Positions 4,951 to 20,073 of a stretch of 20,073 nt of DNA are shown here, one piece after another. The stretch is from IMG/VR virus record IMGVR_UViG_2910649936_000002, positions 130,713-150,785 of that record; one strand, given 5' to 3'. The notes beneath the pieces are model-generated. The model saw only the letters and a list, made by a program, of their open reading frames with translations, made no database searches and had not been told where the DNA came from. How positions within the stretch are numbered: position 1 is the stretch's first letter; each line of letters begins with the position of its first letter. The position numbers and the translations under genes were made by a program. The stretch comes from a virus (Duplodnaviria > Heunggongvirae > Uroviricota > Caudoviricetes).

Positions 4951-6033
4951 ATGATATTAGTGTGTAAAGATTTCAACTATGACAATAAATCTCTTATAAA
5001 TCAAAAATATATGTCTGTAAATTTTGAAGATGATACTAGTCTACCATCTTCTATTTCTCGTACTATGGAAACAAGCGATATGAATAAATATCGCCCTGAA
5101 GAAAATGGTTTTGGTATTACATATTCAGAAGTATTAGAATTTGAGGTGCACATTGTAAAGAATTTTGATGAATTCACATCACAATCCGAAATGGAGTTTT
5201 CTAATACCGAATACGAAAAGCTAGTTTCTTGGTTGACGTCGCCACAAACCAATCAATGGATGGAAGTCACAAAAGAAAGTGGAGAGAAAACCAAAGTCAA
5301 AGGTTACTTCTCTTCTGTTGAGCCATACGATAATTGGGGAATTTGTTATGGAGCAAAATGCACTTTTACATGCAACTCTCCGTTCTCTTATACTAGTAAG
5401 GAAATAGAACAGACTATTTCCGGTGTTACAAATTTCCTTGTCAACAACGAAAGTAGCGAATTATATGATTACGTATATCCTACACTCTTAATTGAGCCTA
5501 CCAAAAATGAAGAAATCTATATCCATAATTTATCAGATTCAATAATTCTTGAAAATAGTACAATCACACTTTCAGAGGATACCAGTTCAAACATCACCGC
5601 ACTTCAACAAAAAATTTCTTCTTATGCAGCTTTAAATAATCTAACCGTTGAGTATGTCATTGATGATACAACACAAGACTTAAAACTGATTTGTGATAAT
5701 ACTGGATTGCTATTTTATATGACGGACTCATACGGTATTAAAAATAAATATGTTGCTTATTATTTGAAAGCGGATGGACAATATTTTATATGTCAAAGTG
5801 GATTTTTCTACTGCAAATTATCTCAGGCGTTGAAAGTTAAAATTAATTGTAAAAATCTTGGAATGTATGATTCATTAGGGCGCCCTGTTCTTTTTGACAC
5901 TATGGGTATTCAGGATGAAGATGAAATATATTGGCTTCGTTTGATACATGGAAATAATAGTTTCAGGGTTATGGGAAATTGTAAAATAACTATCTCCTAT
6001 CTTGAAGCACATAAAGGAGGACTAATTTCATGA
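4951..6033 (+). CDS. Distal tail protein (Dit)-like
   Basis: Lies between the tape measure and Tal genes. GAGGTG RBS. Dit-like motifs: N-terminal DFNYDNKSL, LVSWLTSP, FTCNSPFSY, and C-terminal WLRLIHGNNSFRVMGNCKITISY. Confidence 0.75.
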   Translation: MILVCKDFNYDNKSLINQKYMSVNFEDDTSLPSSISRTMETSDMNKYRPEENGFGITYSEVLEFEVHIVKNFDEFTSQSEMEFSNTEYEKLVSWLTSPQTNQWMEVTKESGEKTKVKGYFSSVEPYDNWGICYGAKCTFTCNSPFSYTSKEIEQTISGVTNFLVNNESSELYDYVYPTLLIEPTKNEEIYIHNLSDSIILENSTITLSEDTSSNITALQQKISSYAALNNLTVEYVIDDTTQDLKLICDNTGLLFYMTDSYGIKNKYVAYYLKADGQYFICQSGFFYCKLSQALKVKINCKNLGMYDSLGRPVLFDTMGIQDEDEIYWLRLIHGNNSFRVMGNCKITISYLEAHKGGLIS

Positions 6034-8774
6034 AAATTAATCGTGATTTTTATAATCGAAATGAGCCGTCTCGGATTTATCTGTCTACTCCAAACAAGCA
6101 ATTATTATGCGCTTTAAATAGTGTAGATATAGATAGTGTAGATTTTCAAGGGAATTGCAATGACATATCTACTATAAGCTTCAATATAAACCAGTATATT
6201 GAGGATGATTCAGGAAGGCAAATCGAAGCAAATGGATACCAACTTATATCTAAATATACGAAATTATATGTAACAAATATTGGCTGGTTTATATTAGGAG
6301 CACCAGAAACTCATCATAATGGAACGTATGAATATAAAACAATCAATGCTTCTTCTGCTCAAGTTGAATACAGTCAGGTTCCTCTTGATGGTTGGAAGGT
6401 AAATCGTGGTACTACAGATTCACTTGAAATGCTCGTCGAAGGTAATGTAGAAATTATTAACGATGTAGAGTTCGCAAAAGAAAATATCAAATTTCATTAT
6501 CCCGAAAAACCCGAATTGAGTTTAGTAGATATAATAGTTTCAAAGGTTCCCGGTTGGCAAGTCGGCTATGTAGATAACATCCCTAAAACTTATGAAAGTA
6601 TTGAAAATGGAGAAATTGTTACAAAAGATGTACTACTCGCAGATGAAGTGGGTACGTTTGATATTAACTCTAGTAACTGTTTCTCTTTTTTAATGCAAGA
6701 TTTTGAAAAATATTTTAATTGTGTTGTGGATTTCGATTATTTAAATTTTGTAGTTAATTTTTACAGAGTAGAAAATTTTGGAAAAGATACAAGCGTTACG
6801 ATTGGATTTAGAAATATTGAAAATTCTAACGACGTTGTAATTGACGAAGATAATATTTTTACTAAGTTTCGTGTTTCAGGTGGAGATAATCTTGGCATTG
6901 AACAATTTAATGGCGGAAGTAATTATCTTACAATTATTGAAGACTATTGGTTAAATAACAAATATCTAAGTGACTCTACTATTCAAAAATATAAGGCTTG
7001 GACTGCATTTTGTAATGTTGCAAGATATCAATATGGGGAATATTCTAAAACATGGAATACGTTGCAAGAAGAAATCTCTGAATTATATAATCGTATTCCA
7101 GTCAGTGATTGTGATCCTAGTAATTGGTCTAGTTTAAGTGATTCTGCTTTACTAAATTTAAAATCGGATTACGAAGCTCAAAAACTAGGATATGAAAAAA
7201 TATATGTAGATGATGAAGGAAACTTCGATATAGAAGCATTAGACGCTTCACCAGATGCAAATACCTATCATCAAATTGTAGATACTATTCTTCCTAATAT
7301 TGACATAGAAATTAATAACAGAGGTTTGGAGTCCTCACTAGATATTGAAGATTATATAGATAATTATTATACAGACTGGGATTATTATGGTATTAATGAG
7401 CTTACTATAAGATTACAATCCTATCAAGATATTGTAAATCTATTGAAAAAAGATCACTATGATTTAACTTGGGAAGAATATCAAGAAAAATCAAAGGAAG
7501 ACATTGAAAAATACCCAGTGCAAACTTCAGACGGATTTGAGGACAAGCACAATGAATATATAAAAAATGCAGAACAGTTAGATGATAGCAATATCGATTC
7601 ATGCGCATACGCTTTGAAACAAAGGCAAACCGAAGCAGATATAAAACAAGAACAGCAAGACGAAGTTAATTCAAACCGTTCTTCTCTAGCACAAAAAATG
7701 GATATGAAAACATGGCAGGGACAAGAAACTTTACAAAGTGAAGCTTCAACTGGTTTCACCCAAAAAGAGTTGGATGAGATATCACATATAATTAATCAAA
7801 GTACATATGTAAATGAAAATATATTTGTCTCTTCTACCGAAGGACTTACAGATACAATATTGATGCAGCAAAAATTATGTGAAACTGCTCTTGATGATTT
7901 ATCTGCATATTCTATACCCCAAGCTACTTATACGACTACAATGAATAATATACTTTCTGCCTTTGGAAATGAAATGCATGCACATGATTTATATTATGGT
8001 AATTTTATTAGACTTGGACTTACAGATACATATTATGTAAAATTACGAGTTATGAGTATATCCTTCAATCCATGCTTATACAATAACGACTTTACTATCC
8101 AGTTTTCCAATATGATTAAGTCTGGAAAAGCTCGTAATGATTTTGTATCACTTCTAGATATGGCTGGAAATCTAAGTAACTCATCTGTAGACACTAGTTA
8201 CTCCGGCAATCCACAAATTACTGATGACAACATCTATCAACTTTTACAAAAGTTATTGCAATCCTCTGCCTTTAACAATAAAGTAGACCATATCGTAAAC
8301 AATAATCCAGGAGGAACCGGAAACAGCTATCTTAAACCAGGCGATATTTATCAGAATAATGGTTTTTTTCAGTATATTCAGTCTGAATTAATTGCTGCCG
8401 GAGAAATTGTTGCGAATAGTGGAGATTTTAAAGATTTACAAGCATTAGTTGCTGCCATTGATAATTTGTTGGCTGGCAATGTAAGTGCAGAACTAGCCCA
8501 TATTATCAATCTTACTGCTAAAAATGTAAATATCGATGAAGCTGTAATTCGTGATTTAATTGCTGCTCAAATAACTGTATCTATGCTTCAGGCAGGTGAT
8601 ATATCTGCAAATAAATTTCATATCATTTCCGATGATGGAGGGCTGTCTATTGTTGGAAATACAATGCAGTTTAAAGATAAAAACGATACTGTACGCATAC
8701 AAATTGGAAGAGATTCTAACAACGACTTTACTTTTGTATTATATGATGAAACAGGCAAGGGAATACTTATTGAT
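6030..8774 (+). CDS. Tal/tail spike (baseplate hub) protein, exon 1
   Basis: ATGA overlap with Dit and an AAAGGAGG RBS. N-terminal hub-like region, then GNFIRLG...VKLRVMSISFN and repetitive beta-rich segments. The apparent TAA (8775-8777) is the first three bases of the IStron. Confidence 0.8.
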
Positions 8775-9240
8775 TAAATGTGAGCCGCACACTTGTGACT
8801 TTAGTCATGAGTTAGGCTGACAAATAGTCAGTGTATAGGGAAACCTGTACATAGAGACGTAAAACCGTCCAATATACTACCTGAATTGCTGGAAATGCGT
8901 AAAGCTAAACTAACTACAACATAAGGATGAAACATACCTAAGTGTGAATGTTGCGAAAGCAGAAAAAATAGTTTAGATGGAATATGGTTAAATCCTAAGT
9001 TCTATACATTTACAAATCGCAAATCAGCAGCGAAGCTCCAAATAGGAGAACGTTCAACGACCATTCCTCTTGAGGGAAGTACATGCAAGCGCATGGAAGT
9101 GGGTAGACCCTAACGTGTGATGACGAGGGATAAGATATGGTCTGTGCTTATGTGAAAACATAAGAAGTTCATAAGAGAACTGTATAGGAAGTAGCGTTCC
9201 TATATGAACGACAACCTCGAAAACGATTAAAGAACCTATT

Positions 9241-10440
9241 GTTCTTATCTATTTATTTAAAAATTTAATATTTCTCGCTTTCAAACGGAGAATAAATAAA
9301 GTAGAAGGCGAGGTGATATTGTGGAAAAAGCATTTAAATATCGAATTTACCCAAACAAAAAACAGCAAGAGTTAATTCAAAAAACTTTTGGGTGTGTAAG
9401 ATATGTTTATAATTATTTCTTAGCTTTAAGGATAAAAGAATATAAAGAAAACAAAAATTTTTTATCTTATAATGATACAAGTAAGTTACTTACTCAATTA
9501 AAGAAAGAACTAATCTGGCTGAAAGAACCAGATAAAGATTCTTTGCAGAAATCGTTAAAGGATCTGGATATGGCATACCGAAAATTTTTTAAAGAACATG
9601 CTGGTTTTCCAAAATTCAAGTCTAAGAAAAATAATCATAAATCTTATCGGACAAGTCGTACAGCCAACAATATTACTTTTGTAGAAAAGCATATTAAGTT
9701 GCCAAAACTTGGATATGTAAAAACAAAAGATAAACAAATTCCACAAGGAAGAATTTTAAATGCTACCATCTCACAGGAACCAAATGGACATTATTATTGC
9801 TCATTATGTTGCACAGATGTTGAAATGCCACAATATCAAAAAACTCGTTCTAATGTTGGAGTAGATTTAGGTATTGTAGATTTTGCCATATTATCTGATG
9901 GAAATAAAATTGAGAACCAAAGATTTTATGAAAAATCAGAAAAGAAGCTTGCTAAGTTACAAAGATCAATGTCAAGAAAAACAATTGGCGGTAAGAATTG
10001 GAACAAAGCGAGAATTAGAATTGCAAATTTACAGAAACATATTTCTAATCAACGTACTGATTTTTTACACAAACTTACAACAAAGATTGTTAAAGACTAT
10101 GACGTTATCTGCATTGAAGATTTAGAAGTCAAGTCTATGAAAGAAACTGATTATACAATAAGGAACAAACGAGTTAGTGATGTTTCTTGGTATGAGTTTC
10201 GAAGACAATTAGCTTATAAATGCCAATGGTACGGAAAGCAACTTGTCATTGTAGATAAATATTATCCCTCATCACAGATTTGTAGTGCGTGCGGAAAACG
10301 AGATGGTAAGAAATCAGAAGATATTAGAGTGTGGGTATGCCCTCATTGCGGCGCAGAATTAGACAGGGACTTAAATGCCGCAACCAATATTTTAAATGAA
10401 GGATTACGAATATTAAATAGTTAAATAAATAGATAAGAAC
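9241..10440. repeat. Perfect 20-bp inverted repeat flanking tnpB (9241-9260 / 10421-10440)
   Basis: GTTCTTATCTATTTATTTAA and TTAAATAAATAGATAAGAAC. Pairing extends imperfectly to 9263-9272/10409-10418 and 9235-9239/10442-10446. Confidence 0.9.
9321..10424 (+). CDS. tnpB: TnpB RNA-guided endonuclease (IS200/IS605 OrfB)
   Basis: N-terminal KAFKYRIYPNKKQ...FGCVRYVYN (HTH_OrfB_IS605). RuvC residues in GVDLG, IEDL and DRDLNAATNI are all intact. Zn finger SSQICSACG...CPHCG. GTG start with GAGGTG RBS. Confidence 0.96.
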   Translation: MEKAFKYRIYPNKKQQELIQKTFGCVRYVYNYFLALRIKEYKENKNFLSYNDTSKLLTQLKKELIWLKEPDKDSLQKSLKDLDMAYRKFFKEHAGFPKFKSKKNNHKSYRTSRTANNITFVEKHIKLPKLGYVKTKDKQIPQGRILNATISQEPNGHYYCSLCCTDVEMPQYQKTRSNVGVDLGIVDFAILSDGNKIENQRFYEKSEKKLAKLQRSMSRKTIGGKNWNKARIRIANLQKHISNQRTDFLHKLTTKIVKDYDVICIEDLEVKSMKETDYTIRNKRVSDVSWYEFRRQLAYKCQWYGKQLVIVDKYYPSSQICSACGKRDGKKSEDIRVWVCPHCGAELDRDLNAATNILNEGLRILNS

Positions 10441-10548: not shown

Positions 10549-13060
10549 AGCTATTAGCGATGGACTAATAAAAAATGACATGATTGCTAATGGTACGATA
10601 CAAAAAGATAAACTTGGTTTTAAAGTTGTTGAAACAGATGAAAACGGAAAGGTTTCTATTACAGAAATATTAGATCCAAGCGGAGGTTCTCTCGGTGTTT
10701 CATACACCGAAATGCAAAATAAAGTAAAGGATCTTGGTGAACAAGTAACGGAAATTACTCCATATACAATTGTAATGGAAAATGAATATCAAAATATTCC
10801 CTGTGTTCAAGGTACTGCAAAAGACAGTTTTTTAATTGAAATTCCATTTACTGGATATGCTGGAAGTCTTCAAACCGCTACAACCGTAAATGTAGGTGTA
10901 TTACCTTCTGGTATTACATTAGGTTCTAACACCCCTGCAACTGATACTAGTTCTGGAAAAGTCGTTTTAAATGTAGCAGATGGAGCAGATTTTGGTGGTA
11001 TAGATATACTAACAGGATATATCATTTTAACATTTACTATTAATAGTCATGTAATTACCAAACGTTTTACATGGACAAAAACAAATGATGGTTCTTCTTC
11101 TGATGCTTCCTTTTATACCTTAGATTTATCAACTCAAATTGTTTTAAAATCCGATTCATCTCTCACTCCCCCATTCATTACTTTGAATTCATATTTAAAA
11201 CAGGGTACTTCTAAAACTCCATATTCTGGTAGGTTTGTTATTAAAGAATCCACAGATGGTTCCACGTACAATACAAAATATCTTTCTTCCTCTGATGAAG
11301 CTTCAAAGGAATATACTATATCTTCCATTGATGTAAAATCTATTGAGTGTATTTTATTCGAATCTGGTGGAATTACAAATGAATTAGATGTGAAAACTAT
11401 AGCTGTAATCACCGACTCTAGTTATTTAGAGTCCGAAATCACGCAAATTACAGACACAGTTACCGAATTAAGTTCAACTGTTGATATGCATACAAAGGAA
11501 ATATCGCAAAAAGCATCACAGACTGATGTAACAACCGCTATTAACAATTATGATAATACTACAGTAGAGACTATACGTGAGCAAGTAGCGGAACATACTA
11601 CAAAAATTGGTGAAATCACCTCTGAAGTCTCTGATGTAAAAACTACGGTAAACACTAAAGCTGACGGCTCTACAGTTACAGAATTACAAAAACAAGTAAG
11701 CACTTTGGAACAAGATGCCGAAGGTTTTAAATTAGAAGTTTCTAATACATATGCAACAAAAGATGAGCTTAATGAGTCTTCTGAGACACTTCAATCTACT
11801 ATCGAGCAAACCGCAGCAGGAATTAATCAAACAGTTTCCGATTTATCTGGTAATGTAAGCAGTATTGGTCAAACAGTAGGTGAAATCAGTCAAGAAGTTG
11901 AAGATGCAAAAGGAAATATTACAGATTTGCAGCAAACCTCAGAAGAAATTAGCATGATAGTTGGAAACAAACAAGATTTAATTCCGGCAAATATTCGTTA
12001 TATCAGAGATTGGCTAAATGGAAATACCGTAGATACTGTTAATAGGTGGACAGAAATACAAGTAATAGTAAATGATACAAATTTAGCTTCTGGCGAAACC
12101 AATATTGTTTTACAGAAAAATGTTACTGTCACATCAGATATTACAATAGATAACCTTGAAAATTATATTGATGCAAGTACAGAAACGTATGTCGAAAGCG
12201 AAGAAACTGGCTGGCACTATCTACAAATCGATTTAGGCGAGAACAACACTTTTGATGCTGGTTATATTACTGTTTGGCATAGATTTGATGATTCAAGAAA
12301 ATATAATCATAAATTAGAAATATCAGCAGATGGTGAAACATGGTTTGTTTTATTTGACAGTGAAAAATATGATAAATATACAGAGACAAATGAAGGTCGT
12401 ATGTATATGATTAGCGATGGTTTAGTTAATAAAAATCTCGCTTTTATTAAATTAGATATGCAATCTGTAGTATTGAAAGTGCAGGAAAACGAAGAAAATT
12501 TTGCTTCTATTGAAACAGAAATTGACAGCGTTATTACTCGTGTAGAAAGTACAGAAGATACCGTACAGGAAATTCAAAATGAAGATATACCTGGATTACG
12601 CAATGATGTAAAACAACAGGTAGCGGAAATAGCTGCTACTTCTGATTCTATAAAAAATACTGTCATAGAACTTGAAGGTGAAGTTCAAAGGCAAGCTGAA
12701 GAAATATTAACTACTAATGAATGGAAAGTATCTCTCGCTAACATAGGCGCGTATGATGGGAAATATGCTACTGAAACAGTTAATATGACGCTTACTAGCG
12801 ATGGACTTACAATTGTTAGATCCGCAAGTAAAGGATATAGAACACAGCTTACAGGTGATACAATCGCTATAGAATATGATGATGGACGCGGTAATTATGA
12901 ATCTGTTATGGGTATACAAAAAGATCAAATGTATTTAACACGACTAAAAGTAAAAAATGGAATTGACCATTATACATTAAAAGAGCTTCCTATTTCATAT
13001 ACTTCTGGTAATAAAACAATTGGGTGTCTTGCATTTATTTCAAGTACAGGAAATTCATAA
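10529..13060 (+). CDS. Tal/tail spike protein, exon 2 (coiled-coil stalk, F5/8-type C/discoidin-like domain); spliced product 1758 aa
   Basis: Frame is open from 10529 (STGVKDSAISDG...). Heptad-like Thr/Ser/Gln-rich repeats, and IRYIRDWLNGN...WTEIQV...YLQIDLG...ITVWH at ~11993-12410. Confidence 0.8.
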   Translation, partial: STGVKDSAISDGLIKNDMIANGTIQKDKLGFKVVETDENGKVSITEILDPSGGSLGVSYTEMQNKVKDLGEQVTEITPYTIVMENEYQNIPCVQGTAKDSFLIEIPFTGYAGSLQTATTVNVGVLPSGITLGSNTPATDTSSGKVVLNVADGADFGGIDILTGYIILTFTINSHVITKRFTWTKTNDGSSSDASFYTLDLSTQIVLKSDSSLTPPFITLNSYLKQGTSKTPYSGRFVIKESTDGSTYNTKYLSSSDEASKEYTISSIDVKSIECILFESGGITNELDVKTIAVITDSSYLESEITQITDTVTELSSTVDMHTKEISQKASQTDVTTAINNYDNTTVETIREQVAEHTTKIGEITSEVSDVKTTVNTKADGSTVTELQKQVSTLEQDAEGFKLEVSNTYATKDELNESSETLQSTIEQTAAGINQTVSDLSGNVSSIGQTVGEISQEVEDAKGNITDLQQTSEEISMIVGNKQDLIPANIRYIRDWLNGNTVDTVNRWTEIQVIVNDTNLASGETNIVLQKNVTVTSDITIDNLENYIDASTETYVESEETGWHYLQIDLGENNTFDAGYITVWHRFDDSRKYNHKLEISADGETWFVLFDSEKYDKYTETNEGRMYMISDGLVNKNLAFIKLDMQSVVLKVQENEENFASIETEIDSVITRVESTEDTVQEIQNEDIPGLRNDVKQQVAEIAATSDSIKNTVIELEGEVQRQAEEILTTNEWKVSLANIGAYDGKYATETVNMTLTSDGLTIVRSASKGYRTQLTGDTIAIEYDDGRGNYESVMGIQKDQMYLTRLKVKNGIDHYTLKELPISYTSGNKTIGCLAFISSTGNS

Positions 13061-13128: not shown

Positions 13129-15009
13129 ATGGCTACATGGGAAAGCCGTGTAACATGTTCAGAAACGTATGTATCTGGCGGAGCTGAAAATTATTCTAAT
13201 GTTACTATTACTTTTCAAATACGACGCATGGATTATAGTATGAATGGTTATAACTATGAGGGGACAGCCAATTGGAGTATAGCTTGCAATGGTTCACATT
13301 CTGGAAATCAATATTTTAATTTTAATTGGGGCGGAACTCCTGCTGGAACTTGGTGGACTGTTGGTTCTTATAGCTTTAAAATTCCTCATAACAGTGACGG
13401 AAGTAAAACCATATCGTACAGTGCATATTTTTATACTGGAATTACACCAGAATCATTTTCAGCAAGTGGAAGTAAAACACTTACTAAAATTCCCAGATAT
13501 GCTAAAATTACAACTTTTAAAGTTACTTCTACTACACAAACAGGTGCTACTGTTACCTGGAATACTGACGCTACTTGTAATGCTCTTTATTATTCACTTA
13601 ACAATGGCAGTTGGAAATCTATAAGTGTAGCAAAAACATTTTCATTAAGTGGATTAGCCCCAGGAACATCTTATACACTAAAAATACGTGTAAAACGATC
13701 TGATAGCGGGCTTACTACAGATAGCAGTAATACTACTTTTTCTACATTGCCAATAGCCACAATTTCTACTTATCCCATTACATTTAATATTGGAAGTCCA
13801 TTGGTTTTAACATTCCAAAACTATAATAATAATGCTTCTTTTTTAAGATTGTATCAAAAAAATACAAGTGATTCCTGGGTAAAAATCACAGAAGTGACAG
13901 GTATTCAGCAATCTTCTTATACATGGAACTTATCATCTTTTGCGACAACCATGTATAATAATACTCCTAATTCAAATACAAGCGATATTAAAATTATATG
14001 TGGAGTTGTGTTAAATGAAAAAGAATATACGAATGAATACTTGGGAACAGCCAATGTTGTTAATAGTAACCCATCGTTTACCACGTTTGTATTTGGGAAT
14101 ACAGAAGAAATGTCTTCAGAAATGTTAGGAAGTACACTTTCAATGATTACTTATGTAGGGAATTTACGGGTTAGCATCTCTACTGCGAATAAAGCCATTG
14201 CAAAAAATGGTGCTAGTATTAGTTATTATAATATTTCAGTTTCTAATTCTAACGGTGATATAACCATTCTAAAAAAGGTAAATGAAACCACTTCAAATTT
14301 AGCTGCTGATTTCGGGAATTTCCAAACAGCCGGCTCATATTCTATTAAAGTTGAAGCTGTTGATTCAAGAGGGAATATTAGCAATTTAGTTACTAAGAAT
14401 TTTGTTGTTTACAAATACCATACTCCCACTATAACTGTGACACTTACACGAGTTAATAACTTTGAAAAAGAAACAGGTGTTACAATATTAGCTTATCTAT
14501 CTCGTGTATATACAACAGCAAATAAAAATGCACTTTCTTCTTTAAAATATCGTTTTAGAGAACAAGGTGGAGGGTGGTCATCTTATTTTACACTCTCGCC
14601 GAGTATTGCTACATCTAATGATGATTTTAAAATCACATATACTCATGATCTTTTTCGTAATTTGGAAATACAAAAAGCTTATGAGTTTGAATTTGTTATT
14701 ACCGATAAAATTCAAGCCGTGACTTCAATGCAAACCGTAGGACAAGGTGTACCTTTAATGACTATCGCTGACTCTGGTACTGTACTTGTTAATGAAATTC
14801 CAACAATGGAAAATTTAGAAAATGATTGTAGTTTTCTTGTAGGTTCTGATATATTGGCACGTGATTCTTTGGGGACTCAACGAAAAATTTTGGAAGAAAT
14901 AACTAATAAAATTACTTTTAGTGAAACTATTGAGGCAGAACCACAAAACACAATGAACGATACGATTTGGTGCCCTATACTCGCAACTATTACGTTAAGT
15001 TCAGAATAA
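13129..15009 (+). CDS. Siphovirus minor tail protein, DUF859-like, with a fibronectin type III domain
   Basis: IPHNSDGSKTI...LTKIPR motif, FN3 signature LSGLAPGTSYTLKIRV, and later VEAVDSRG and YEFEFVITDKI. Ser/Thr-rich and beta-rich. AGGTG RBS. Confidence 0.7.
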   Translation: MATWESRVTCSETYVSGGAENYSNVTITFQIRRMDYSMNGYNYEGTANWSIACNGSHSGNQYFNFNWGGTPAGTWWTVGSYSFKIPHNSDGSKTISYSAYFYTGITPESFSASGSKTLTKIPRYAKITTFKVTSTTQTGATVTWNTDATCNALYYSLNNGSWKSISVAKTFSLSGLAPGTSYTLKIRVKRSDSGLTTDSSNTTFSTLPIATISTYPITFNIGSPLVLTFQNYNNNASFLRLYQKNTSDSWVKITEVTGIQQSSYTWNLSSFATTMYNNTPNSNTSDIKIICGVVLNEKEYTNEYLGTANVVNSNPSFTTFVFGNTEEMSSEMLGSTLSMITYVGNLRVSISTANKAIAKNGASISYYNISVSNSNGDITILKKVNETTSNLAADFGNFQTAGSYSIKVEAVDSRGNISNLVTKNFVVYKYHTPTITVTLTRVNNFEKETGVTILAYLSRVYTTANKNALSSLKYRFREQGGGWSSYFTLSPSIATSNDDFKITYTHDLFRNLEIQKAYEFEFVITDKIQAVTSMQTVGQGVPLMTIADSGTVLVNEIPTMENLENDCSFLVGSDILARDSLGTQRKILEEITNKITFSETIEAEPQNTMNDTIWCPILATITLSSE

Positions 15010-15030
15010 ATTTAATTTGGAGATGATACG

Positions 15031-15933
15031 TTGGCAAAATTAATAAAATATAAAGATAAAACTCTTGAATATTACAGTTATTATAAAACAGAAACTTCTT
15101 GTATTTTTAGTTTTTTTAACATAGACTACAATTCTGTTTTAGATTTTTTTGGTAATAACATTATTAATAATATAACACTTACTGATGATGCATTAAACAA
15201 GACTACTACTATTCCACTTGATATGAAATTTTCTTCTATCCAATCAGAAACCAGTTCTATAATTTTAAAAACCCATTCTGTTATTAAGGAAAGTTATTAT
15301 ACTGAAGAAGCGTTGGTAGATCCTGAAACTGGCAAACCAGTATTAGATGAATCGGGACACCAAATTATAGAAACTATATTTCATCCTGCTGAAATAAAAA
15401 CATCAGAGTCTAAACAATCTGGTACTTTAATTACAGTCCAGTTAGAAACACCATCTTTAAGTGATAGACTTACTACGCTTACAGAAGACGTAAAAAAACA
15501 ATCAGTAGCATATCAAGTATCAGCATTGTTTGCGCAAACACTTGATGATACTACTGCTCTATCCATAAAAGACATTTATGAACAATGGAACGATTTAGTT
15601 AAAAAAAATTTTGTAGCTAAAGATAAAGATTATAAATTCTTATATAATAGTGATTTATACAAAACAGCCAAAGAGAACGTAGAATTTCAATCACAATGGA
15701 TTCCCGGACAAAATACTGAAAGTCTATTTACTTATATAGATGAAGATCATATCGGGACACTTGAAGATCCGATACCTGCAAAAGTCAACATGGAATATTT
15801 TAAAGATAAATATTACATAGAAAATAATAATTTATATTTATGTGTTTCTGAATTGGCTAAAAACGGAATTGTCCTTCAGTATACCCCTAGTCAATTAGTG
15901 GGGAGCTATTTTGAATTGATAGAACTCCGCTAA
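15031..15933 (+). CDS. Hypothetical tail-associated protein with a possible CBM5/12-like C-terminal region
   Basis: TTG start after GGAG. C-terminal SQWIPG..TESLFT.IDE.H.GT.EDPIP...MEYFKDKYY..YLC resembles segments I recall from Clostridia phage tail regions (not searched). Confidence 0.55.
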   Translation: MAKLIKYKDKTLEYYSYYKTETSCIFSFFNIDYNSVLDFFGNNIINNITLTDDALNKTTTIPLDMKFSSIQSETSSIILKTHSVIKESYYTEEALVDPETGKPVLDESGHQIIETIFHPAEIKTSESKQSGTLITVQLETPSLSDRLTTLTEDVKKQSVAYQVSALFAQTLDDTTALSIKDIYEQWNDLVKKNFVAKDKDYKFLYNSDLYKTAKENVEFQSQWIPGQNTESLFTYIDEDHIGTLEDPIPAKVNMEYFKDKYYIENNNLYLCVSELAKNGIVLQYTPSQLVGSYFELIELR

Positions 15934-15959
15934 CATAAATTTAATGAATGGAGGTTTAT

Positions 15960-16472
15960 ATGGCGCAAACAAACACTGGAATTATCGTTCCTTTATTTCG
16001 AAAAGTAAAAGAAGGATTTCAAAAAGTATTTATAACGGCAAGTAATATAATGATGGCAGACAATAAAACTACATTGCAAGAAAAAATTAATGATATTGAT
16101 GATGATATTACTACATTAAATAGCAATTTTATAGTTGAAGAGAATAAAAATTCCAATGGGAATTATCGGAAATGGTCTAATGGTATATTGGAAATGTGGG
16201 GGAAGAAAGCACTTAATAATGTTAATATCAATAATCGCCCCAATACTTCAACAACGGTTTATAATTCGATACAATATAGAATCACATTTCCGTTTGCTTC
16301 ATTATCAGAATGTATTATAACCTGTACGAATTATTCAAATACAGGTGCATGGGTATCACTATCTACGGGTGGGGATAGGAAATCCAGTTTCATGTTTTGG
16401 CTTTACTGTTCCCCTACAAGTAGTGGTGGTTCGCATTATGTGTGCTGGCGCGCAATGGGGACATGGAAATAA
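15960..16472 (+). CDS. Small tail fibre/adhesin gene, the shufflon expression locus (52-aa constant part plus cassette A)
   Basis: GGAGG RBS precedes ATG 15960. Short coiled coil TLQEKINDIDDDITTLNSN, then a gp53-like C-terminal domain (YRKWSNGILEMWG...FP..F...WRAMGTWK). A recombination site lies within the gene at 16116-16129. Confidence 0.8.
   Translation: MAQTNTGIIVPLFRKVKEGFQKVFITASNIMMADNKTTLQEKINDIDDDITTLNSNFIVEENKNSNGNYRKWSNGILEMWGKKALNNVNINNRPNTSTTVYNSIQYRITFPFASLSECIITCTNYSNTGAWVSLSTGGDRKSSFMFWLYCSPTSSGGSHYVCWRAMGTWK
16116..16129 (+). repeat. Shufflon site 1, TTAAATAGCAATTT
   Basis: Exact 14-mer, in frame (LNSN) within the expressed gene. Confidence 0.92.
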
Positions 16473-16556
16473 TTATACAACTCTATGAATATCATACTTA
16501 ATTAACAGCATGTTCTTTAGTGCAATACTAATATTTTTTTCGTAATGAATATTTAA

Positions 16557-16892
16557 CTACATCCATCGCCCTATAACGTAATAATTTGCTCTAATACTAT
16601 AATTCCCAGAGGTTTTATCTACACGTGTTATGGTAGAAGTAGTCGTTCTTTTCGTATTTCCTCCACTGTCAGCTTCCATAATATTAGTCGCAACAGTTCC
16701 ATTATTGGATAATGTGAGTTGTATATAAAAATTAGTGTCTTTAAAAGATATAGGAAAAGTTATAGTTGCCAACTGCGATGTTTTCACTGTTGCAGCAAAA
16801 GTGATATTTCCCCAACATTCTTGTATTCCACTATGCCAGCGTCTATAATATGTCCCATTTTGAACGATATAATCAATTAAATTGCTATTTAA
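16557..16892 (-). CDS. Silent shufflon cassette B (no start codon; 111 aa)
   Basis: Reads from site 2: LNSNLIDYIVQNGTYYRRWHSGIQECWGNITFAATVKTSQLATITFPISF...YYVIGRWM*. Paralogous to cassette A. Confidence 0.88.
   Translation of the reverse strand, partial: LNSNLIDYIVQNGTYYRRWHSGIQECWGNITFAATVKTSQLATITFPISFKDTNFYIQLTLSNNGTVATNIMEADSGGNTKRTTTSTITRVDKTSGNYSIRANYYVIGRWM
16879..16892 (-). repeat. Shufflon site 2 (inverted)
   Basis: AAATTGCTATTTAA, the exact reverse complement of site 1. Confidence 0.92.
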
Positions 16893-16998
16893 TTCAGTAT
16901 TAAATATTCAGAATTATCAAGCACTTATATTTTTATGTATGCTAAAAACACCTGACAATGCCAGATGTCAAATTCAAAATTTGATACTATTTATTGGA

Positions 16999-17988
16999 CT
17001 ATGAACTTAAATATTGATAATGATGATATTTAATACCTTCTTCATTAACGGTACAGTACATCATCGTAGTTTCAGGTTTGGAATGCCCTGCAAATTTCAT
17101 TACTTCTTGCAATGGCATTCCCCTATTTAGGGCATTTGTAAGTGAGGTTCTTCTAAATCTATGTGGGTGTGCATTACTTACATTTGCTTTAAGACCTATT
17201 TCCTTAACAATATATTCAATACCAGATTTACTTAATCGGTTATGCGGATATTTTTTCCCTACGAAAAGAGCTTCATTTTTATCTATCCTACTTTTTAAGT
17301 ATTCTTTTAAATACAAATTACTTTTTTCATTTATGTATACGATTCGTTCTTTTCCACCTTTACCATATACAATTAAATCCTTATTTCCAAATCGAATATC
17401 GGTGATATTTAATGCAACTAATTCAGACACCCTTATGGCAGTAGAATATAAAAATTCTATTAATGCCATATCTCTTATATTTTTACACTTTCTGAGCATT
17501 ATTTCTCGCTCTTCGCTTGTAAATGGCTTTTTTATTTTTTGTTCAACTTTAATGGTTTCTACTAACGCCATTGGATTTATTGATATTTTTCCTCTATCAC
17601 GTAGCCATATAAAAAATGTATTAAATATTGCTCTTACATTTTTCAAAGTTTGGTTGCATGCCTTTCTAATTGCTTTATACATTGTTAGATATTCTGATAT
17701 GTCTGTACTCAAAATATGTTTAACATTTTTATTTATATATGATAATAAACGATGTAATTCATAATCATATCTATTGACAGTTTTTACTGCCAATCCTGAT
17801 AATCGTTTTGATATGATAAAGTCGGATAATTCTTTTGTCCATGTATTATCATTTACACGTAATGTCGTATTTTCAACAATTTCACACCCAACAAAAACTT
17901 GATTCATTGTTGCTTTCAATTCACGTAACTGATTTTCATTTAACACAAATTGCATTTTCCTAATAATTTCTAAAATTTTTTCTTCCAT
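16999..17988 (-). CDS. Tyrosine recombinase (XerC/D-like), putative shufflon invertase
   Basis: Catalytic motifs STAIRVSEL (R), GKGGKER (K), HPHRFRR (HxxR), GHS (H) and TTMMY (Y). N-terminal SAM-like region. GGGAG RBS. Located between sites 2 and 3. Confidence 0.93.
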   Translation of the reverse strand: MEEKILEIIRKMQFVLNENQLRELKATMNQVFVGCEIVENTTLRVNDNTWTKELSDFIISKRLSGLAVKTVNRYDYELHRLLSYINKNVKHILSTDISEYLTMYKAIRKACNQTLKNVRAIFNTFFIWLRDRGKISINPMALVETIKVEQKIKKPFTSEEREIMLRKCKNIRDMALIEFLYSTAIRVSELVALNITDIRFGNKDLIVYGKGGKERIVYINEKSNLYLKEYLKSRIDKNEALFVGKKYPHNRLSKSGIEYIVKEIGLKANVSNAHPHRFRRTSLTNALNRGMPLQEVMKFAGHSKPETTMMYCTVNEEGIKYHHYQYLSS

Positions 17989-18026
17989 TTTCGTTCTCCC
18001 TTTTATTTTTATCTATATATTCTGCG

Positions 18027-18040
18027 TTAAATAGCAATTT
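18027..18040 (+). repeat. Shufflon site 3
   Basis: Exact TTAAATAGCAATTT. Confidence 0.92.
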
Positions 18041-18368
18041 AGTATTAGAATGGAAAAAAACTAATAATGGTTGGTATCGCAAGTGGAGCAATGGCTATAT
18101 GGAAGCATGGGGAACCAGTACAGCAGGAAGTAACGGAGCTGCTGTAGGACTTTCATATCCTGTGAATTTTGATATAACAGAAATGGATGTGAGAGTTCAA
18201 GCAACTGCTTTGTACCATACTGGAAGTGGATATACGGCAAGTTATTCTACAAGTGTGCAACCATATAATGCGGGTAAAAATATGCATATTTATATACGTG
18301 ACGCGAATGGTGAAGTTCCACCGTCAGGCGTAGCAATTAGTTGGTATGCTGTAGGACGATGGAAATAA
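18027..18368 (+). CDS. Silent shufflon cassette C (113 aa)
   Basis: Reads from site 3: LNSNLVLEWKKTNNGWYRKWSNGYMEAWG...ISWYAVGRWK*. Paralogous to cassettes A and B. Confidence 0.88.
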   Translation, partial: LNSNLVLEWKKTNNGWYRKWSNGYMEAWGTSTAGSNGAAVGLSYPVNFDITEMDVRVQATALYHTGSGYTASYSTSVQPYNAGKNMHIYIRDANGEVPPSGVAISWYAVGRWK

Positions 18369-18372
18369 CATG

Positions 18373-18765
18373 TTACTTTAGTTCACAAAAAAATTCCCAT
18401 GTCAAAATAACAGAACGCGGTGGTGATGTTAAATAATATGATAATGATGTCACTATCGCTCTTGAATCTGAAACTTTTAAACCATTATAATTATTGATGG
18501 TAAAAATTCCAGAACAATCACCAGATGAAAAATTTACAAATAATGGCGTTTTTACGTTCATTCCTGTTTGTTTCGGAGTTAATGCTAAATTAGAAATATT
18601 TCCATAATACATGTTACCAATTGTTGAAGATGGATTAAGAGTATCACTCCACGTTCCTATTGTATACATATAACGAATATTATTTATAACAATTATAAAA
18701 CAAGTATATGTATAAGGAGAACTACTGTATTTCTTTAGTGATTCGAATCTTAAATTGCTATTTAA
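18373..18765 (-). CDS. Silent shufflon cassette D (130 aa, divergent type)
   Basis: Reads from site 4: LNSNLRFESLKKYSSSPYTYTCFIIVINNIRYMYTIGTW...LTWEFFCELK*. Open and in frame. Confidence 0.82.
   Translation of the reverse strand, partial: LNSNLRFESLKKYSSSPYTYTCFIIVINNIRYMYTIGTWSDTLNPSSTIGNMYYGNISNLALTPKQTGMNVKTPLFVNFSSGDCSGIFTINNYNGLKVSDSRAIVTSLSYYLTSPPRSVILTWEFFCELK
18752..18765 (-). repeat. Shufflon site 4 (inverted)
   Basis: Exact AAATTGCTATTTAA. Confidence 0.92.
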
Positions 18766-18984
18766 CCCAGTAACTTTTATGAGATAAAATTAGTATAAAT
18801 TCAATTTTGCAACTTACCAATCCCATACATTAAACAATAGTATTCATTTATTCAGTAGATGTTTTCTTCTACTTTTTATTTTTAATTTTCAAATTCGAAA
18901 GGAGAAATTATTATGAGTTTATGCAATGGTATACCATAAGTCACATAGTAATATTATTCAAATTAACATTAAGTTAAATGTATC

Positions 18985-19012
18985 AAATAAGAGCTTAAAG
19001 CTCTTATTTTTT
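18985..19012 (+). terminator. Terminator-like hairpin upstream of the endolysin (possibly bidirectional)
   Basis: AAATAAGAGCT-TAA-AGCTCTTATTT followed by further T residues. Confidence 0.6.
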
Positions 19013-19044
19013 ATGCGCAAAATTGCGCGGAAAGGAGAAAATAT

Positions 19045-20073
19045 ATGAAAATAGGATTAAGAGGCGGGCACAGCCCGAACTGTAAAGGTGCGGTCGGGAT
19101 TCTTGATGAACAGGCAGAAGTAAGGAAGATTTATAATGCATTAGTACCAAAGTTGCAGGCACAAGGGCATACAGTAGTAGATTGTAATTCTAATGCGTAT
19201 GATGTAAACAGTGAGCTTTCAGAAGGCACAAACAAGGCTAACTCAAACGGTTGTGATGTATATATTACTATTCATATGAACGCATCCGGCGGAGCTGGAA
19301 ATGGTACAGAATGTTGGTTGTATGACGGAAGCAATGGGACAATGAATAGCATTGCAGATAATATCTGCAATAATTTTGCAAAGAAAGGATTTCAAAACCG
19401 AGGGAGAAAATATAATACAGGATACCATGACTTAAATGCTTCCGCCATGCCGGCGATGATTGTTGAAACGCTATTTTGCGATAACAGCCATGACGCTAAC
19501 TTATATAACAGTTTGGGGTCATCTGGCATTGCTGAATTGATTGCAAAGGGGATAGCAGGACAGACAGTATCTGGAGGAGGTTCGTATACGCCGCCTGTAT
19601 CTGGAAGCGGAGGAAGTTCTTCTAATAGTTCTGGAGATGCAGAAGTTGTATTTACCTATGCTGTAAAATTGACAGATGGAACAATTTTGCCATTTGTGAG
19701 CAACCTGTCTGATTATGCAGGGCTTCCAGAACGGACAATCGCTGGAATTGCAATTAAAGTAAACAAGGGTTCTGTGAAATATCGGGTACATGTTAAAGGC
19801 GGCGGATGGTATCCATATGTAACTGGATGTAATTGGAACGATATTAACAATGGATGGGCTGGTGACAATGGTATTGTGATTGATGCAGTAGAAGTATATT
19901 ATAATACTCCGGCTGATATTATAAATACATATGGCTACCAGAAAGCGCAGTACCGCGTAGCTCCAATAGGTGGCGGTTATTATCCGTGGCAGTTCGATAA
20001 TGAAGTTGGCAATGGACAGGATGGCTATGCTGGCGTGTTTGGAATTGCGTTTGATAAATTCCAATTATTTTAA
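19045..20073 (+). CDS. Endolysin, N-acetylmuramoyl-L-alanine amidase (Amidase_3) with a C-terminal cell-wall-binding region
   Basis: Zn ligands and catalytic residues in GGH, DEQ, IHMNA and VETLFCD. Gly/Ser linker. C-terminal YRVHVKGGGWYPYV / YRVAPIGGGYYPW repeats (ChW-like). AAAGGAG RBS. Confidence 0.92.
   Translation: MKIGLRGGHSPNCKGAVGILDEQAEVRKIYNALVPKLQAQGHTVVDCNSNAYDVNSELSEGTNKANSNGCDVYITIHMNASGGAGNGTECWLYDGSNGTMNSIADNICNNFAKKGFQNRGRKYNTGYHDLNASAMPAMIVETLFCDNSHDANLYNSLGSSGIAELIAKGIAGQTVSGGGSYTPPVSGSGGSSSNSSGDAEVVFTYAVKLTDGTILPFVSNLSDYAGLPERTIAGIAIKVNKGSVKYRVHVKGGGWYPYVTGCNWNDINNGWAGDNGIVIDAVEVYYNTPADIINTYGYQKAQYRVAPIGGGYYPWQFDNEVGNGQDGYAGVFGIAFDKFQLF

Follow-up and report, generated by a model that had tools for sequence, protein, structure and literature searches.

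A predicted four-cassette tail-fibre tip shufflon with a Xer-like tyrosine recombinase in a Firmicute-type prophage

We analysed a stretch of 20,073 nucleotides (nt), positions 130,713 to 150,785 of the IMG/VR record IMGVR_UViG_2910649936_000002 (Caudoviricetes), which is called the window throughout. Between the siphovirus tail genes and the endolysin gene of this window lies a locus with one small fibre gene, three cassettes that have no start codon, a tyrosine recombinase gene and four copies of a short sequence, referred to here as the sites. The original prediction, made from the sequence, had taken the locus for a tyrosine-recombinase shufflon acting on a tail fibre, and the constant N-terminus, the four alternating start-less cassettes, the recombinase and the position between tail and endolysin genes fit that description. 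The locus contains the following features, with lengths in amino acids (aa) and family matches given with their E values.

15960..16115, plus strand: constant N-terminal part, 52 aa; ATG at 15960 after GGAGG, ending at site 1
16116..16129, plus strand: site 1, exact 14-mer; putative crossover site within the expressed fibre gene
16116..16472, plus strand: cassette A, 118 aa and a stop codon, predicted to be the one currently expressed; Gp53-like_C 1.3e-4 (below the cut-off), phrog_2712 tail fiber 4e-12
16557..16892, minus strand: cassette B, 111 aa and a stop codon, silent; Gp53-like_C 2.2e-8 (above the cut-off), phrog_2712 3.5e-12
16879..16892, minus strand: site 2, exact 14-mer
16999..17988, minus strand: Xer-like tyrosine recombinase, 329 aa, predicted invertase, between sites 2 and 3; PF00589 3.8e-36, PF13495 2.7e-6
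18027..18040, plus strand: site 3, exact 14-mer, 38 nt upstream of the recombinase start codon
18027..18368, plus strand: cassette C, 113 aa and a stop codon, silent; Gp53-like_C 1e-3 (below the cut-off), phrog_2712 1.6e-7
18373..18765, minus strand: cassette D, 130 aa and a stop codon, silent, of a different fold family; no Pfam or PHROG match
18752..18765, minus strand: site 4, exact 14-mer; outer boundary of the invertible region

The sequence TTAAATAGCAATTT, 14 base pairs (bp) long, was found in four exact copies in the orientations plus, minus, plus, minus, beginning at 16116, 16879, 18027 and 18752 just as the original prediction had listed them. It was the sole 14-mer with four copies in the window, and when 200 second-order Markov simulations were run, the commonest 14-mer had two copies in 198 runs, three in 2 runs and never four. 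With up to 2 mismatches allowed, the window contained 6 matches, a number that 0 of 100 shuffles reached; the other two matches were offset opposite-strand readings of both minus sites, which arise because the site is partly palindromic. Site 2 reads AATTAAA-TAGCAA-TTTAATT, with perfect 7-bp inverted arms on either side of a 6-bp asymmetric spacer, and this reads as a canonical tyrosine-recombinase core. Outside the 14-mer, T-7, C-5 and T-4 were the same at all four window sites, which thereby keep these positions of the family flank consensus, T(-7) n C T G A A, core, n T T. That consensus was obtained over 283 called sites of relatives, and the flank positions were not used in selecting those sites. 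The upstream flank was conserved also at silent cassettes; as it is non-coding there, its conservation points to a constraint that acts on the DNA itself.

Every site is read as TTA AAT AGC AAT, encoding LNSN, and opens a frame of 118 codons in cassette A, 111 in B, 113 in C and 130 in D. On the upstream side of the site, the open frame extends over 56 codons in the case of A and over just 5, 20 and 8 for B, C and D, respectively, and none of the latter three has a start codon. The upstream frames thus leave one expressed gene of 170 aa, composed of the 52 constant residues and the 118 of cassette A, plus three start-less cassettes, and the cassettes form two convergent pairs. This frame analysis agrees with the earlier claim that LNSN opens start-less cassettes of which only A is joined to the 52-aa N-terminus. 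Expression of the fibre fusion, like that of the recombinase, is predicted from the sequence. As proteins, the cassettes are pairwise 19-34% identical, in contrast to the exact 14-nt DNA identity at the sites. A local jackhmmer search with cassette C gave 70 hit rows among the open reading frames (ORFs) of related loci, which carry L numbers below. L109 and L013 have similar constant parts, each of 44 aa. The shortness of that in the window had been considered unusual, and it turned out not to be unique: constant parts in the family range from 44 to 658 codons, and short ones were also found in L012/L134 (57 aa) and L027 (59 open codons). A search with Rfam at the gathering threshold returned no RNA family for any part of the window.

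The matches of the cassettes to fibre proteins were graded. Against the curated cut-off of 24.9 bits for Gp53-like_C (PF21882), cassette B scored 34.9, A 22.9 and C 20.0, and a cassette profile matched the F2-pyocin side fiber at 1.1e-6. An AlphaFold model of ORF A, built from a 35-sequence alignment, had a mean predicted local distance difference test score of 83.9, with values >90 over most of cassette A. The model shows a hairpin (residues 10-25), a helix (39-55) whose end coincides with the LNSN junction, and a beta-sandwich (58-168), and as modelled the site falls at the neck-to-head junction of the fibre. The best matches in the PDB were the tips of the R1 and R2 pyocin fibres (6cl5, 6cxb, 6ct8) and AP22 gp53 (4mtm), with E values from 4e-4 to 8e-3. 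BFVD gave 70 matching predicted viral structures at E<=1e-3, of which many bear the name tail fibre or receptor-binding protein. For cassette D, a word-based search found no relative, and an exhaustive search of 1.84 billion representatives found 8 at E<=1e-3. A D-like part forms the C-terminus right behind an LNEN junction in two proteins, the 227-aa P0128 and the 307-aa collagen-repeat protein P0130. Since A, B and C have fibre matches, A has the fold of a fibre tip and D-like domains end fibre-like proteins, all four cassettes are credible tail-fibre tips. The Atlas look-up for cassette D, which returned only viral clusters of low recognition, provides no more than a lead.

The two cassette pairs enclose the recombinase gene, which is part of the invertible DNA and has an intact frame. 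From about residue 51-65 to its end, the protein aligns with the XerC-like protein 4a8e, XerA (5hxy) and XerD (1a0p). Its build is the two-domain one of Xer proteins, and it matched no family of arm-binding domains; the approximately 50 N-terminal residues outside the Xer alignment were without a family match. R186, K210, H276, R279, H302 and Y311 stand at the catalytic motifs of XerD and were invariant across 31 relatives. Among the PHROG matches were the integrase families phrog_1 and phrog_216. The PF00589 protein was the only recombinase in 15000-20073, where 16 ORFs were scanned and none matched a resolvase family. A serine invertase of the Gin/Cin/Min/Pin type was ruled out on the same grounds.

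The arrangement of such loci is not fixed across relatives: those with the same recombinase family, the same layout and the same site core exist as inversion isomers that are broken at the sites. When all loci were compared with one another by megablast, 484 pairs aligned, and 107 of these had segments in both orientations. Strict criteria (pieces of >=95% identity and >=250 nt, both orientations, >=2500 nt aligned) were passed by 25 pairs. In these strict pairs, 75 of the 121 internal alignment ends were <=30 nt from a called site in both loci, a distance that covers 2.8% of the locus length. The site caller takes only cores with <=2 mismatches from the window's 11-mer, and the strict pairs that scored 0 have cores that it does not recognise. 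The recombinases of the loci known as inversion isomers were 57-67% identical to the window enzyme.

Individual pairs illustrate the kinds of rearrangement. L096 and L102 share a 3.65-kilobase (kb) flank that is 99.8% identical and differ by an inversion in place of the first cassette pair, so that one upstream frame of 169 codons is joined to a 131-aa tip in one locus and to a 138-aa tip in the other; some inversions between relatives thus change the expressed tip. In L095 the second pair is inverted relative to L093. L138 and L141, 100% identical over a 3.5-kb flank, have opposite orders of the four cassettes. In L146 and L147, which are 99.9% identical, the recombinase is flipped relative to the flank. 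Polymorphisms in the sites locate the exchange. Between L093 and L095, the variant at core position 4 remains with the left flank and that at position 11 moves with the cassette, and between L096 and L102 the travelling difference starts at position 14. These positions map strand exchange to TAGCAA, and we infer that it takes place within this spacer of the TTAAA-TAGCAA-TTTAA core. When L138 was compared with L141, the outer flank of site 4 in L138 (6203-6280) was an inverted copy of the last 22 constant-region codons; this flank may be an assembly chimera of two isomers.

The recombinase family is large. At E<=1e-40, 1937 proteins matched the window recombinase; the best 120 of the 1937, its own entry aside, were 57-67% identical to it and nearly all exactly 329 aa long. 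Among species-representative genomes, 97 of 176 candidates were confirmed as relatives, mostly from Lachnospiraceae (31-sequence alignment). In IMG/VR, 585 of 600 candidate stretches encode a relative, and about 890 such stretches were estimated in total, mostly Lachnospiraceae-type prophages. The nearest relatives in phage records had 37% identity at best; one of these is MT835621, an hsdS inversion locus. Two cultured phages, TPELB_ph1 and phiCp-D, encode recombinases 32-36% identical to the window enzyme; these lie beside tail genes and are annotated 'integrase'. As candidate shufflons, both phages were rejected since they have no convincing repeated site. Of the 120 listed recombinase clusters, 26 had a longest contig of 1125-1266 bp, and none had a shorter one; the segment from site 2 to site 3 is 1162 bp here. 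Such lengths would fit assembly breaks at sites and were not used as evidence.

The layout is shared by the close relatives. At least 30 of the 48 close-clade loci that were long enough carry all four sites in the order plus, minus, recombinase, plus, minus. The constant region was on the recombinase strand and upstream of the recombinase in 28 of the 30 four-site loci (L005-L159), which are not independent of one another; the opposite state, with the constant region on the strand opposite the recombinase, was found in 2 of the 30 and in the window. Six loci with recombinases 40-46% identical to that of the window (L022, L023, L030, L034, L036, L037) keep the four-site layout with quite different site cores and tip families. 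The tip in L034 is a Gp10_C baseplate domain, the constant part in L030 has a CBM_5_12 module, and in L008 a DUF859 tail protein itself bears the variable tip.

Sites, reading frames, cassettes, an intact recombinase and the fibre-tip fold of A are directly evident in the window. We read the locus as a prophage tail-fibre tip shufflon in which the constant N-terminus is fused to tip A, three further tips are silent and the Xer-like recombinase is predicted to invert DNA between opposed sites, and we put the probability of this reading at roughly 85%. The recombinase would act on pairs of oppositely oriented 14-bp sites. Inversion between sites 1 and 2 would join the constant part to B, inversion between sites 1 and 4 would join it to D, and C would be joined only after two steps; for the orientations plus, minus, plus, minus, these outcomes had been correctly predicted. 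Each inversion would change the receptor-binding tip and so likely the hosts to which the virion adsorbs, with the different cassettes presumably binding different receptors. The system is very likely functional, and the copy in the window would still switch, as judged by homology, the intact enzyme, the exact sites and the open silent frames.

Several results weigh against this reading. A blastn search of 15000-19100 against phage records gave no match, and no near-identical relative was found when the recombinase was searched in IMG/VR and the JGI metagenomes and the 300-aa protein encoded upstream of the fibre gene was searched in IMG/VR. Sites 1 and 3, and likewise sites 2 and 4, are direct repeats, between which deletion would have to be avoided. 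A promoter scan called 23 promoter-like sites where 23.3 were expected from shuffles, and 0 terminators were called. In TPELB_ph1 and phiCp-D there was no clear repeated site at seeds 11 or 8, so distant membership in the recombinase family is alone no proof of an invertase role. The members of each isomer pair come from separate assemblies and not from reads of a single clone, and 46 of their 121 alignment ends lie away from any called site; part of these ends arises because the caller rejects cores with >2 mismatches from that of the window.

Some of the same observations could be explained if the layout were inherited from an active ancestor and the copy in the window no longer switched, the phage making the A tip alone. 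No isomer of this phage was found, its constant region has the orientation relative to the recombinase that just 2 of 30 four-site relatives have, and the IS605-type TnpB and HNH genes in the structural module make some prophage decay possible. A decayed array is nevertheless distinctly unlikely, as the four 14-mers are exact and retain T-7, C-5 and T-4, the recombinase frame is intact with every catalytic residue, and the silent cassettes are open for 111-130 codons within DNA of 28-39% G+C.

Two other explanations were given far less weight. The repeats could be a conserved LNSN coding motif of paralogous fibre genes and the recombinase an unrelated integrase or other mobile-element enzyme, which would suit the 'integrase' annotation of homologues in cultured phages and the matches to phrog_1 and phrog_216. 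A shared peptide motif would hardly account for exact DNA identity over 14 nt among proteins as divergent as these cassettes, for a conserved flank in the non-coding DNA upstream of silent cassettes or for the missing start codons of B, C and D; moreover, the enzyme aligns with Xer proteins from residue 51-65 with no arm-binding domain family matched, and rearrangements between near-identical relatives end at the sites. We therefore regard this explanation as very improbable. Equally improbable is that the sites serve mainly for an integron-like capture and exchange of cassettes between phages, with inversion being secondary. Cassette A is 83% identical as protein and 78% as DNA to a silent L004 cassette, when the recombinases are just 57% and 63% identical, and the site core TTAAATAGCAA opens cassettes in many different phages; both could hint that tips travel between phages. 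However, stronger purifying selection on the tip could produce the same contrast, no circular cassette and no cassette insertion or deletion was seen, and near-identical relatives differ by inversions and by swaps of cassette pairs.

Within the shufflon reading, a further idea is that the orientation of the recombinase inside its own invertible segment governs switching, which we consider doubtful. With just 38 nt between site 3 and the recombinase start codon, a promoter belonging to the gene itself would have to overlap the site. If the idea were true, a recombinase pointing in the direction of the late tail operon, which is its state in 28 of 30 four-site relatives, would be transcribed by read-through in lytic growth and each burst would be diversified, and the antisense state of the window would leave the array quiet or 'locked'.

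In the R64 plasmid shufflon, the tyrosine recombinase Rci acts at sfx sites, and multiple inversions in pilV swap the C-terminus of an adhesin on the tip of the conjugative pilus. The sites of the window family have a strongly conserved arm on just one side, which is reminiscent of sfx. Gin, Cin, Min and Pin are serine recombinases, and Gin, Cin and Min switch the C-terminus of phage tail fibres and hence the host range. The R64 target is the tip of a conjugative pilus, whereas the target in the window is a virion protein in a tail operon. The R64 shufflon and the serine invertases are named in PMC6109161 and PMC9881135.

Whereas the original prediction had named R64, Gin, Cin and Min as analogues, the nearest system in print is Rin, a tyrosine-recombinase shufflon of Bifidobacterium breve/longum prophages (Mavrich et al. 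2018), described there as the first phage-encoded tyrosine-family invertase system (PMC6109161). As far as that description goes, Rin has an 11-bp site, a constant part of 168 aa and tips of 95-100 aa, and its inversions were observed in reads; Rin was later reported in Eggerthella lenta prophages (PMC8778435). Both Rin and the window system, on the same description, are phage-encoded multiple-inversion systems with a tyrosine recombinase that has no arm-binding domain, and both join the constant N-terminal part of a receptor-binding protein to start-less C-terminal cassettes at a short asymmetric site (PMC6109161). They differ in the site (14 bp, TTAAATAGCAATTT, in the window; 11 bp, TTCCCTAACCC, in Rin), in the constant part (52 aa against 168), in the tips (Gp53-like_C or pyocin-fibre-like against TP901-1-like) and in the position of the recombinase gene, which lies between sites 2 and 3 in the window and likewise in 30 of 48 close relatives, whereas that of Rin is described at the outer flank (PMC6109161). 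The host also differs, being of a low-G+C Firmicute type for the window.

Among 236 Bifidobacteriaceae genomes, the 11-mer of Rin formed an inverted pair in one, adjoining a 290-aa PF00589 protein that is a candidate Rin-like recombinase, and it was absent from 10 genomes of one Bifidobacterium genus group. BLASTP of the window enzyme against this candidate gave a match of just 34 residues and 25.8 bits. As far as tested, the two would not be orthologous; the identity of that locus with Rin is itself an inference, the published Rin sequence not having been compared. The system in the window is real and works like Rin but, again as far as tested, is not a member of it by descent.

An active tail-fibre shufflon with configurations observed in reads has also been described in BV01-like phages of Phocaeicola vulgatus (PMC13596623, a 2026 preprint). 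By its description, it differs from the window in its 10-bp motif TGGGAGAACT, its three cassettes and its Bacteroidota host (PMC13596623). Tail-fibre proteins are among the targets, and tyrosine recombinases among the neighbours, that a systematic survey of programmed inversions found to be enriched (PMC9881135). Outside fibre loci, the closest relatives of the recombinase, with 34-37% identity over the full length, were found at hsdS inversion loci of Type I restriction-modification, namely L002 (MT835621, a 'Bacteriophage sp.' record) and L058, L061, L062 and L068-L074 (Bifidobacterium, Collinsella, Eggerthellaceae). Like the window, these loci have a cassette pair bounded by sites on either side of the recombinase or near it, and they have two site pairs in the same alternating order. 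In contrast to the window, their target is the specificity subunit of a restriction enzyme and not a virion protein, and the site cores differ. The principle of tip swapping is already in print for phages of Actinobacteria (2018, 2022) and Bacteroidota (2026 preprint). A literature search, which did not cover supplements, found no paper that describes the Lachnospiraceae-type recombinase family.

The genes around the locus are those of a siphovirus structural and lysis region, as listed here.

4951-6033: Dit-like protein
6030-8777: 915-aa minor tail protein, a large tail gene
10580-13060: 826-aa tail protein, a large tail gene
13129..15009, plus strand: DUF859 siphovirus tail protein
15031..15933, plus strand: 300-aa protein (phrog_27545, function not assigned), directly upstream of the fibre gene
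19045..20073, plus strand: endolysin, Amidase_3, extending past the end of the window

A homologue of the 300-aa protein lies at the same place in L109, and homologues of its C-terminal part were found beside the shufflon in 10 other loci. The protein cluster of the recombinase itself has one member and sits on a contig of 1.96 megabases, and the phage is therefore a prophage. Two mobile-element-type genes were seen among the structural genes, an IS605-family TnpB/OrfB gene at 9321-10424 on the plus strand between two large tail genes (PF07282, PF01385, PF12323; phrog_506 2.5e-134) and an HNH or homing-endonuclease-like gene at 1578-2657 on the plus strand (phrog_559 3.1e-52; treble-clef zinc finger). 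A hairpin, AAGAGCT-TAA-AGCTCTT, lies between site 4 and the start of the endolysin gene (18890-19044), with a T-run after it at about 18985-19015. A duplicated sequence resembling a ribosome-binding site, GAAAGGAGAAA(T/A)TAT, occurs at 18897 and 19030, the first copy preceding just an 8-codon ORF, and no holin gene was evident between the shufflon and the endolysin.

The locus adds a Firmicute-type example to the known tip-swapping systems; its recombinase belongs to a very large family whose site is conserved, and the crossover maps to a 6-bp spacer. The unusually small fibre of 170 aa would make the locus a convenient model for binding and structural work. By programmed tip swapping, one prophage genome would give rise to virions that likely differ in host specificity, which matters for host-range prediction, for matching phages to hosts in gut metagenomes and for errors in assembling such loci.

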